A stretch of 32,000 bases of DNA, from the NCBI GenBank assembly GCA_965250005.1, contig OZ252279.1:1860001-1892000 (forward strand), given 5' to 3'. Source of the stretch: Demequinaceae bacterium. Lineage in GTDB: Bacteria; Actinomycetota; Actinomycetes; Actinomycetales; Demequinaceae. This document shows positions 27,585 through 32,000 of this stretch, one piece after another; the first letter of the stretch is position 1, and every line of letters starts with the position of its first letter. Under the pieces are notes generated by a model. That model made no database searches and had not been told where the DNA came from. It saw only the letters and a program-made list of their open reading frames with translations. The position numbers and the translations under genes were made by a program.

Positions 27585-30500
27585 ATGGGGCGGGTTCGTT
27601 TAGGTTTGGTGGCTGTGTTTGTTGCCGCCGCGCTTGTGGTGTCGGGTACGCCTGCATGGACGGTTGACCTGTCACCGAGCCCGGATTCGACTGCGACTCC
27701 GAGTGTCGAGCCAAGCCCGGAACCGAGTGCAACACCAAACCCAGAACCGAGCCCAGAACCGAGTCCGGAACCGAGCCCAGAACCGAGTGTGGAGCCGAGT
27801 GCGTCGGTGAACGATTTTGTGTGGTCTGATCCTGATCCGGTTGATTCGGTTGAGGGTAATCCTGGTGGGGTGCCTCGCGATGTGGGGTTGGGTCGGTTGC
27901 CGTCGTTTGGGGCGGAGCAAAGTTCTGGTGTTGAGCATCGTGTGTTCGATTTTGATGTGATGTCGGGCACAGATTTTGAGGTTGCTGTCGCTGAGGGTAC
28001 GTCTGGTGTGGATGGCAGTGTTGTTGTTGCTGTGGGGGCGGTGCCGTTGGATGATGTGATTCGGCGTGTGTATGGGTCTTCAGGTTTGTATTTTCCTGGC
28101 GAGCTGCGTGGCCGCCCCGATTTGGTGGCCGCCAGTAGGCCATCAGCTGATGTTGGTGAGCATGTCATCGTGGAACAGCGTCCAGGTGCTGACGCATCTA
28201 TTCCGGGTGCGGCTTTTACGTTGTCGGTGGATGTGGGTGGCCTCAATGAGGATGCTCGATGGGTTGATGTTGCTGTAAATATGTCGCTGGTGGAGCATCT
28301 GTTTGGTGCAAACTATGTTGACCGGCTGCAGTTTGTGTTGCTACCTGAGTGTGCGTTGACGTCACGAAAGAATCGTGACTGTTTTGCTGGTTTGCCGTTG
28401 GAGTCGTCGCGTAATGGTTTGACGGGTGTGACCACGATTGCGGCGCCAGCGAATGCGCGCACCCTTGCAGATGTTGATGGCTTCAACTCGCGTCCTGTCA
28501 GTGTAGATGTGATTCATAGTGGCGATTTGGCGGCCGAGTTTGCTGCCTCACAGGGGTTGAAGTTTGCGGGCACTGGTGGCGGCACGATCATTGTTGCCGT
28601 GTCGGGTGCTTCTGGACAGGCAGGCGATTTTTCTGCTACCGACCTTGCCGCGCAGGGTACGTGGGGTGTGTCTGAACAGTCTGGCGCGTTCACCTATTCG
28701 CTGCCTATAGAGGTTCCACCCGCGCAGGCCGGTGCCGCCCCGAATGTTTCGTTGTCGTATTCCAGTGCCGGTGCGGACGCTAAAACAGAGTCCACGAACG
28801 GGCAGACATCAGTTTTGGGTGAAGGGTGGGCAAACCCGACGAACTTTATTGAGAGGCTCTATTTGCCGTGTAACGCCGACGAATATGGCACCAACCTTTT
28901 GGACAAGTGTTGGCATTCGCCGTATACGAGTGTGCCTGGTGAGGCGGCCTATACGGTGTCCCTAAATGGGGCAACATATGACCTGATTTGGGATGGCGGC
29001 AACCGTTACCGCACCTCTACAGAAATCGGATGGCGGGTGACACGTCACTGGGGTGCCAACAACGGCGACGGCGGTGAAGCCGACTCAGACGATGAAGGCG
29101 AATATTTTTTGGTCCAGGTTCCTGACGGTTCGCGCTACTACTTCGGTTACGGACATGTCGGTGTCAGCGGCTCGCCAACCAACTCGGTTGCGACCGTACC
29201 TGTTTTTGGTGACGATACAGGTGAACCGCGTTGTGGTACTGACGCCAACGACGAATGTGTGCAGGGATATCGGTGGATGCTGGACATTTCGGTGGACGCC
29301 TCAAACAACGCCAGCACCTATACCTATACGCGTGACACCAATCATTATGCGCTCAAGGGTGACGTCAACCGGATCACCGAATATACGGCCGCAATCCGTT
29401 TGGACGACATCAAATACGGTCTGGTGTGGGGCGGACTTGATGTAGGGGTTGGTACGCAGCAGGCGGACGCGAAGGTCCAATATGTTTACGTCGAACGCTG
29501 TGTTCAAGCGGCAAACTATTTGGGCACCCTTGCAACAACGCCAGCCGTGAACTGCCCAGATATGGATGAAGACAACGCCCACTTCTATCCCGATGTTCCT
29601 ATCGATTTGTTGTGTGATGCAGCCACGGGTTCGAACCCTTGTGCAGCCACCCACAATTCGCCAGTGTTTTTTACTACCGAGCGGCTAGACCAGATCACTA
29701 CATCGGTACGTGACTGGGCAGACGTTGACACGAACTCCGACTGGGTTCCGGTTGCGACCACTCAACTGTTGGCTGGCTATCCGATGACGGGGGATGGTTC
29801 TGCCCGAAACTTGTGGCTTGATGGCGTTTACACCAAAGCGTGGGGCGAGTTCGGCAACGTTGACGACGATTTGCAAACGTATGTCATCAAGTTTGATCCC
29901 ATCCAACTCAACAACCGTGTGGACTTCATTCCTGGTGACGATGACCGTCGCGCCGTGGACCGTCTACGTATTGAACGCGTACGCACCGAATTCGGTGGCC
30001 ACATCGAAGTCGAATATGCCCGCGATATTGATGGTGTTGGCGACGCAGATCCAGACGACCCGTACGGGCTGACAGTCTGTGAAGCCGATGGATTCGTCAA
30101 CGAAGCAGCGATCGACACGTACTACGACACCGTTTTCGCGAACGGTTGGGACGAAAACAGCCAACTGTGCTCCCCGTCCTCGAACGCAGACGACGCACCC
30201 ACATTCCACAAATATATGGTCACCGAAGTACGCCTCGTCGATGCGGTGGCGCCCGTACCTGTTGATGCAGACGAAGACGGCGACTTTGAGGAAGCAACAT
30301 CGAGCGACTTTTTTGACTACCTGACCACCGTTAACCGATACGACTACATCGGTGAGCCTGCCTGGGCTTACGCCGATTCGATCATGTCGGAGCGCGGCCA
30401 GGGTGGACAAACATGGAACGTGTTCCGTGGCTACGAAATTGTTGAATCCTGGGTAGGTGAGAACCTCACCGACTATGCGGTCACCCGCAACCAGTATTAT

Positions 30501-32000: not shown

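Follow-up and report, generated by a model that had tools for sequence, protein, structure and literature searches.

What is made by a reading frame that opens at an ATG, passes more than a thousand codons without a stop and then leaves the available DNA? The question is raised by a 32,000-nucleotide stretch from a Demequinaceae bacterium (GenBank assembly GCA_965250005.1, contig OZ252279.1, positions 1,860,001 to 1,892,000 of the forward strand). We call this whole stretch the window and number it from its first letter. An earlier note on the same DNA, made from the letters and a list of open reading frames (ORFs), had proposed a toxin-complex (Tc) or polymorphic-toxin gene that begins at 27585. 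Our answer, to which we give a probability of about 0.9, is that the window holds the N-terminal half of a single-chain secreted RHS (YD-repeat) polymorphic toxin of about 3018 amino acids (aa), from a Demequinaceae-like host with a single membrane.

We first consider the frame itself. Translation of 27585..32000 (+) from the ATG gives 1472 codons with zero stops, in agreement with the earlier count, and these are the first 1472 of about 3018 codons of a gene that leaves the window at its 3' end. Each of the remaining five frames over the same interval carries 23-85 stops, so the open frame is not due to chance. The gene is missing from the ORF track, as had been remarked, because the track omits ORFs that leave the source sequence. 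A Shine-Dalgarno-like AGAGGG can be read from the sequence at 27573..27578 (+), 6 nucleotides (nt) 5' of the ATG. An antisense shadow ORF of 433 aa (26945..28246, -) reaches from the end of the upstream gene, which encodes a DNRLRE protein, into the first part of the RHS gene.

The protein starts with a predicted Sec signal peptide (aa 1 to ~26, 27585..27662, +), in which MGRVR is followed by a hydrophobic core and by SGTPAWT. The core is 15 residues long with a Kyte-Doolittle mean of up to 2.5 in the hydropathy profile. This N-terminus is consistent with a Sec signal peptide, as the earlier note had called it. It is kept in three relatives (P0001, P0002 and P0009), whose alignments begin at aa 1-7. 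The linker rich in Pro, Glu and Ser that had been seen in the sequence is found at aa ~29-72 (27669..27802, +), coded by an imperfect 12-nt tandem repeat for which Tandem Repeats Finder reports periods of 12, 24 and 36 at 27714-27802. An N-terminal beta-rich region follows (aa ~74-344, 27803..28617, +) and is present in relatives, aligning with P0009 from aa 1 and with P0005 from aa 171. Its residues 181-340 are modelled by AlphaFold mainly as beta-strand, with a block predicted local distance difference test (pLDDT) of ~50-85.

The next question is "what follows the last base of the window?" An exhaustive HMMER search found a protein of 2786 aa (P0075) that agrees with the window protein in 1239 of the 1240 residues over which the two overlap, the sole mismatch being E1455D. 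With one mismatch in 1240 residues, we take P0075 to be the same gene from an essentially identical genome. Its residue 1 corresponds to aa 233 of the window protein and it continues 1546 aa beyond the window end, from which the full length of about 3018 aa follows; the stop codon of the toxin gene is predicted near coordinate 36641. The internal start of P0075 (nt 28281), which leaves it without a signal peptide, is probably a gene-caller artefact, because the shadow ORF covers this region on the other strand and the N-terminus is kept in P0001, P0002 and P0009. Two other searches for the continuation were made. An exact 57-nt DNA search of metagenomes found none, and a scan of GTDB genomes gave only a Sphaerimonospora locus, 28% identical.

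NCBIfam matches no family in the window protein. Pfam and NCBIfam scans alike give no RHS or YD match within aa 1-1472, as the earlier note had seen by eye, so that the RHS shell it placed beyond the window had been a deduction. P0075 supplies it. Outside the window, and by way of this near-identical sequence, two models exceed their cut-offs, YD_repeat (TIGR01643) with 29 bits (cut-off 15.8) and Rhs_assc_core (TIGR03696) with 44.5 bits (cut-off 32.5), the latter at aa 2473-2524 of P0075. The core motifs are DPVTARFLTPDP and PVLFQDASGL, after which 262 residues remain. The part of P0075 past the window aligns with aa 955-1985 of the RHS protein P0005 at 36% identity over 1140 columns (E 1e-143).

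We turn to the module that precedes the shell. The TcB/SpvB-like N-module covers aa ~345-1047 (28618..30725, +), as placed by fold search and by the Pfam SpvB signature, and it is common to insert-free RHS proteins up to aa 1047 (aa 893 of P0005). The SpvB N-terminal signature occupies aa 365-397 (nt 28677-28775). On the window protein Pfam SpvB reaches 21.9 bits where 22 is the cut-off, over profile positions 3-35 of 287 only, and precomputed PF03534 matches are present in several homologues. An AlphaFold model of aa 181-1010, built from a 30-sequence alignment, has a pLDDT of 79.9 and a predicted template modelling score (pTM) of 0.74. In a Foldseek search of this model against the PDB, ranks 1-13 are all TcB subunits (TcdB2-TccC3, YenB, TcdB1), with E values of 2.5e-14 to 4.8e-12 and a probability of 1.0. 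The next match is the N-domain of Salmonella SpvB (6p0x, E 5.5e-11, target-normalised TM 0.55), and Rhs cores of type VI secretion systems and teneurins come far below TcB. The global TM-scores are low (~0.28), which is expected where multi-domain proteins are compared. Judged from the model, the N-module is TcB/SpvB-like, right at the level of the fold and borderline at the level of Pfam. The N-terminal SpvB/TcB string of the earlier note accordingly stands as a fold and falls just short as a Pfam family, and the comparison of a predicted structure with TcB that it suggested returns TcB subunits as the best matches. Its strings resembling the TcdB middle region do not hold up: Pfam TcdB_toxin_midN and midC have no match in the window protein (E<=0.01) and none in P0075, and TcdB_toxin_midN matches are seen only in relatives, within their FG-GAP arrays. 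A single-sequence phmmer search against the PDB gave no TcB or RHS chain, only low-complexity linker matches and a weak match to an FG-GAP esterase.

Between the N-module and the DUF6443/RHS part, at the position of the TcB propeller, lies an FG-GAP/VCBS array that runs from aa 1054 to past aa 1472 (30744..32000, +). It was delimited by the FG-GAP_3 profile (8.4e-15, Pfam) and by a self-built repeat hidden Markov model (HMM), and DxDxDG-type motifs are present in it. The HMM finds 10 repeat units at aa 1054-1592 of the full protein and one more is seen by eye near aa 1115, for a total of about 11. Nine of them begin inside the window (8 by HMM, 1 by eye), where at least 7 had been claimed; two further blades lie beyond the window end, in P0075, where the array continues over aa 1240-1360 of that protein, and the array ends near aa 1592. 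The inserted segment starts at about aa 1048 (aa 893 of P0005). Because most relatives have no array (of the 4324 family representatives, most match over the N-module alone), we read it as an insertion relative to P0005 and P0009 that is confined to a small subclade. The homologous insert of P0002 was modelled, with a pLDDT of 61 overall and ~70 in the core. This model matches the seven-bladed FG-GAP lectin of Psathyrella (E 2.7e-08) and also integrin alpha subunits, TcdB1, YenB, the umbrella-toxin lectin UmbA4 and the multi-propeller protein DDB1. The DDB1 matches hint at tandem or nested propellers, with low model confidence. The repeats of the array seem to be of two flavours, outer units spaced ~50-60 aa apart (starts at aa 1054, ~1115, 1164, 1494 and 1546) and Trp-rich inner units whose spacing is mostly ~42-44 aa (aa 1208-1447).

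Does the far end of the protein carry a toxin? The C-terminal domain (CT) of P0075 comprises 262 aa (aa 2525-2786), and its last ~77 aa read VTFGHGARHL...FWGRV...EYRAY...GTINVGTYYVP. This segment recurs at 41-73% identity and always at the extreme C-terminus of its carriers, among which are RHS fragments, PT-HINT proteins and a protein with a type VII secretion signal. From this distribution the terminal ~77 aa appear to be a mobile toxin module without a Pfam family, and the variable C-terminal toxin expected by the earlier note is thus found in P0075, its terminal module shared with other delivery scaffolds. To describe the neighbourhood of the module we surveyed 45 metagenome loci (L011-L055), 40 of which have a same-strand ORF of at least 60 aa just past the toxin gene. 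All but one of these 40 ORFs form a single BLAST cluster (39/40); they begin within ~30 nt of the toxin stop and measure 114-136 aa where complete. Five cluster members were scanned, and all five pass Pfam DUF6984, whose cut-off is 24.6, with 36-52 bits. Since such an ORF follows the module in 39/40 loci, a standard comparative signature, the ~77-aa module and DUF6984 form a likely toxin-immunity pair, with the DUF6984 gene as the likely immunity gene, and a DUF6984 gene is therefore predicted just past the toxin stop in the genome of the window. A literature search found no paper naming DUF6984, and the pair looks undescribed. A nuclease type of activity would be our guess from the small size of the module and its conserved His, Arg and Glu. 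Other CTs in relatives are TNT, Ntox27 and RNAse_A_bac.

The domain order can be followed in relatives as well. At the sequence level, the order of the window gene product is confirmed by three intact proteins: P0076 (2910 aa; FG-GAP, DUF6443, RHS and a weak Ntox27), P0077 (3311 aa; TcdB_toxin_midN with 26.9 bits, the cut-off being 24.8, FG-GAP, RHS and TNT) and P0071 (2535 aa; FG-GAP, RHS and PT-HINT). Among word-indexed homologues the closest are P0001-P0004, at 47-49% identity; their annotations are FG-GAP/VCBS only, and one of them is named 'VCBS repeat-containing protein'. When the RHS proteins P0005 and P0009 are aligned by tblastn with the loci of two of these (L001 and L002), they are colinear through the N-module, then skip ~590 aa (the FG-GAP insert) and resume with DUF6443, the YD shell and the RHS core in hopping frames. 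Downstream of P0003 lies a gene of 1158 aa with an RHS/YD shell and RNAse_A_bac, followed by a CdiI_2 immunity gene, and with this toxin domain and immunity gene locus L008 ends; P0004 reaches the end of its contig. The frame-shifted RHS shells found downstream by tblastn, together with P0075, rule out P0001-P0004 as VCBS proteins that lack RHS.

With the domains in place, three other explanations can be weighed. The one that survives best, though we consider it quite improbable, is that the gene product is B and C of a true Tc (ABC) complex in fused form, with a propeller that docks on a TcA pentamer from a gene elsewhere and with a eukaryotic target (such as an insect or a protist). It has the structural matches on its side, TcB subunits being the best ones of the N-module, and also the order of SpvB-like module, propeller and RHS, which is that of TcB, as well as P0077, which passes TcdB_toxin_midN at the start of its propeller array. 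However, no TcA-like gene and no other gene of more than 1400 aa is found in window positions 1-27500, in the 27 kb upstream of the toxin gene, nor within 7-10 kb in the loci of seven relatives. The toxin also has its own signal peptide, and most members of its family are without any propeller. The propeller of TcB has 6 blades, against about 11 in the array. The CT module is accompanied by a small downstream gene of its own, a pattern that marks out polymorphic toxins aimed at bacteria. Because the protein is a single polypeptide, no TcA was found in the stretches just named and the TcdB_mid models have no match, we conclude that this is not a Tc complex; of the two possibilities in the earlier proposal, the polymorphic RHS toxin is the one that stands. 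By analogy, it would act as a WapA/Rhs toxin of the Sec type does, with a front end like that of TcB.

Less probable still is a decaying pseudogene in a disturbed island that yields no functional toxin. A broken IS3 copy lies 2.3 kb upstream, and three related RHS genes in one metagenome are fragmented by frameshifts (L001 16741-19638, L002 8712-11616, L008 5917-10153). Against this, the frame is intact for 1472 codons in the window and for 2786 codons in P0075, with one substitution between the two sources. The three fragmented loci all come from ENA assembly ERZ25039549, and with a single assembly and several frame hops per gene, the breaks look like assembly indel errors rather than decay; the pseudogene is rejected on these grounds. 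The same breaks make the database proteins appear as 'VCBS' proteins without RHS. The least probable of all, a large adhesin-like wall protein (SpvB-like module and FG-GAP/VCBS repeats) that ends soon past the window with no RHS shell or toxin, could point to the FG-GAP/VCBS-only Pfam annotations of P0001-P0004, but these are truncated calls (the RHS shell follows in shifted frames past P0001 and P0002, and the RHS/RNAse_A_bac gene past P0003), and near-identical P0075, which reads through into YD repeats and the RHS core, rules it out, barring a truncating mutation just beyond 32000.

Several points weigh against the assignment to a secreted RHS polymorphic toxin. Pfam SpvB stops 0.1 bit below its cut-off and the TcdB_mid models have no match on the window protein. 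The core motif is DASGL and not the canonical DPxGL. Everything past aa 1472 is taken from P0075, and the gene's own stop codon and immunity gene are predictions. The model of the insert, from which the number and arrangement of propellers would be read, is only of moderate confidence (pLDDT 61). The CT has no Pfam match at E<=10 and no PDB sequence match to suggest an activity. The target range, bacterial or eukaryotic, is deduced from the immunity-gene pattern, and a literature search found no experiment on any actinobacterial member.

The secreted RHS toxin does not stand by itself at this locus. Directly upstream is a 672-aa ORF (25502..27520, +) for a DNRLRE/CBM96-type protein, the separate DNRLRE-like neighbour of the earlier note, which scores 56.6 bits against a cut-off of 34 with the NCBIfam model DNRLRE_dom (NF033679) over aa 363-522. 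It contains a signal-peptide-like N-terminal stretch, and the true start of the ORF is probably internal. Only 64 nt separate its stop from the RHS toxin gene, which suggests that the two genes are co-transcribed. Six other loci have a DNRLRE homologue directly upstream of their RHS gene, namely three metagenome contigs (L001, L002, L006), Demequina sp. TTPB684 (L004), Actinosynnema (L009; 1105 aa with an extra LamG domain) and Luteipulveratus (L010; 1373 aa with an extra LamG domain); the upstream genes of L001, L006, L009 and L010 pass NF033679 with 46.7-72.5 bits. With the same synteny in six other loci, the pairing is a conserved module and not an oddity. The family is related to CBM96, from which the protein may be expected to bind carbohydrate or cell wall. 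In Streptococcus suis WapA-CT1, a DNRLRE domain belongs to the N-terminal fragment with which a Sec-exported Rhs protein binds the cell wall (PMC12704120). A secreted SpvB/FG-GAP protein paired with a DNRLRE protein had been regarded as outside the textbook; the class is listed in Table 1 of PMC3482391 and the partner is conserved, so this view is dropped.

Side by side with the main genes, orphan RHS C-terminal cassettes occur downstream of the RHS genes of three relatives (L001 20378-21564, L004 16171-18218, L009 19318-20731). The cassette of L004 consists of a YD-shell fragment with a TNT toxin domain, and a 103-aa gene comes next. Such cassettes are typical of toxin-immunity modules that have been displaced.

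Combining these pieces, a working scheme for the RHS toxin can be proposed. The signal peptide would direct Sec export to the cell surface or medium. The linker and the beta-rich region precede the module with the TcB/SpvB fold, which would close the cocoon at one end and supply its first strands, as in TcB. The array of ~11 integrin-type FG-GAP blades at the TcB propeller position would most likely be a targeting device that binds surfaces or glycans, rather than a dock for TcA, given that no TcA gene was found. The YD-repeat shell, seen in near-identical P0075, would enclose the C-terminal toxin, and the aspartyl autoprotease of the RHS core, if it behaves as in its family, would cut after ...PVLFQDASGL and free the 262-aa CT inside the shell. 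The terminal ~77 aa would then act as the toxin, from which the directly downstream DUF6984 protein, found with the module family and predicted here, would protect the producer. The co-oriented DNRLRE/CBM96 protein upstream, whose synteny is conserved, would be an accessory that probably binds cell-wall or target carbohydrate. A further step is tentative, and we hold it to be doubtful: in single-membrane actinobacteria the separate DNRLRE/CBM96 protein and, within this subclade, the ~11-blade array could make up a TcA-independent, lectin-like targeting and delivery device for Sec-exported RHS cocoons, with a logic like that of UmbA in the umbrella toxins of Streptomyces, whose cargo would be the undescribed toxin-immunity pair of the GHGARHL...GTINVGTYYVP module and DUF6984.

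We turn our attention to the surrounding DNA. The first 23 kb of the window (1-23 kb) are core chromosome, with xseA, ispH, rmuC, ychF, typA, a VanW protein, an aminotransferase, citrate synthase, dapD and dapE. TypA is 90% identical to proteins of uncultured actinobacteria, including the metagenome-assembled genome HGW-Actinobacteria-4, and 84-88% identical to those of Demequina species, from which the host is taken to be Demequinaceae-like. The VanW protein (12762-15563, +) has 933 aa, with the VanW domain at aa 751-879 and ~750 N-terminal residues without a Pfam match at E<=1e-5. An element of the IS3 family of insertion sequences (23977-25283), bounded by 28-nt inverted repeats (23977-24004 and 25256-25283), separates this part from the toxin locus. 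Its orfA is at 24910-25251 (-), and its orfB is broken into two parts, 24437-24913 and 23996-24403. On either side of the element stands one copy of a perfect 208-nt direct repeat (23737-23944 and 25283-25490); this far exceeds the normal target duplication of IS3, and its second copy is the region directly upstream of the DNRLRE gene. From ~25 kb onward (~25000-32000) the G+C content falls from ~0.63 to ~0.55, and the G+C at third codon positions is 0.57-0.58 in the DNRLRE and RHS genes versus 0.70-0.77 in the core genes. The lower G+C and the adjoining IS3 element suggest that the toxin locus was acquired horizontally, as an island that starts from the element. No sortase or SecF-like gene is seen at the locus.

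What is gained from this locus? The way in which the Sec-exported RHS toxins of Gram-positive bacteria get to their target cells and into them is still unclear, and the locus offers handles on this problem and nothing categorically new. From Demequina to Actinosynnema the DNRLRE partner is kept, and in S. suis WapA its domain is fused to the toxin, which suggests an accessory function common to them. In a rare subclade a long FG-GAP propeller array has been put back at the TcB position with no TcA found, and this is a natural test of the role of the propeller outside Tc complexes. The pairing of the 77-aa module with DUF6984 gives a Pfam domain of unknown function a likely role in immunity. 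For annotation, public records of such RHS genes often cut them short or call them 'VCBS repeat protein'.

Finally, the toxin is compared with the systems already described. Zhang et al. (2012) list a 'TcdB/TcaC' class made of a signal peptide, SpvB, an integrin-like propeller and RHS, actinobacteria included (PMC3482391, Table 1). The elements of this class are all found here, that is, the signal peptide, the SpvB fold, the integrin-like propeller, the RHS repeats and a variable C-terminal toxin, again in an actinobacterium. The architecture is thus already catalogued and is not a new system. The window toxin differs from the class in its unusually long array of ~11 blades, present only in a minority of its actinobacterial family, and in the DNRLRE gene that accompanies it; the class label moreover implies a TcB-like export route, which for single-membrane bacteria is not demonstrated. 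What is new is modest: an FG-GAP insertion of great length, a DNRLRE partner that is conserved, and a CT module that has no name and is paired with DUF6984.

The TcB-TcC cocoons of Photorhabdus and Yersinia (TcdB2-TccC3, 4O9X and 6H6E; YenB, 4IGL) are the best structural match of the N-module and have the same order, in which an SpvB-like module is followed by an FG-GAP propeller and then by the RHS shell; in both, the RHS core carries an autoproteolytic motif ahead of the toxin. They differ in having separate B and C subunits where the window toxin is one polypeptide, and the latter has its own Sec signal, no TcA found, no TcdB_mid match, a single-membrane host and a target predicted to be bacterial from the immunity-gene pattern. 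The N-domain of Salmonella SpvB (6P0X) matches in fold (E 5.5e-11) and in the signature G-x-F-x-Y-S-x-P-I..., but there an ADP-ribosyltransferase follows directly after the N-domain and no RHS shell is present. The Sec-exported WapA/Rhs proteins (Bacillus subtilis WapA; S. suis WapA-CT1, PMC12704120) resemble the window toxin in the Sec signal, the RHS cocoon, the polymorphic C-terminal toxin with its immunity and the association with DNRLRE. While S. suis WapA has DNRLRE and LysM fused at the toxin's N-terminal end and uses SecF-like and SrtB helpers, the window locus has a separate DNRLRE gene upstream, and its toxin adds a TcB/SpvB-like N-module and an FG-GAP array.

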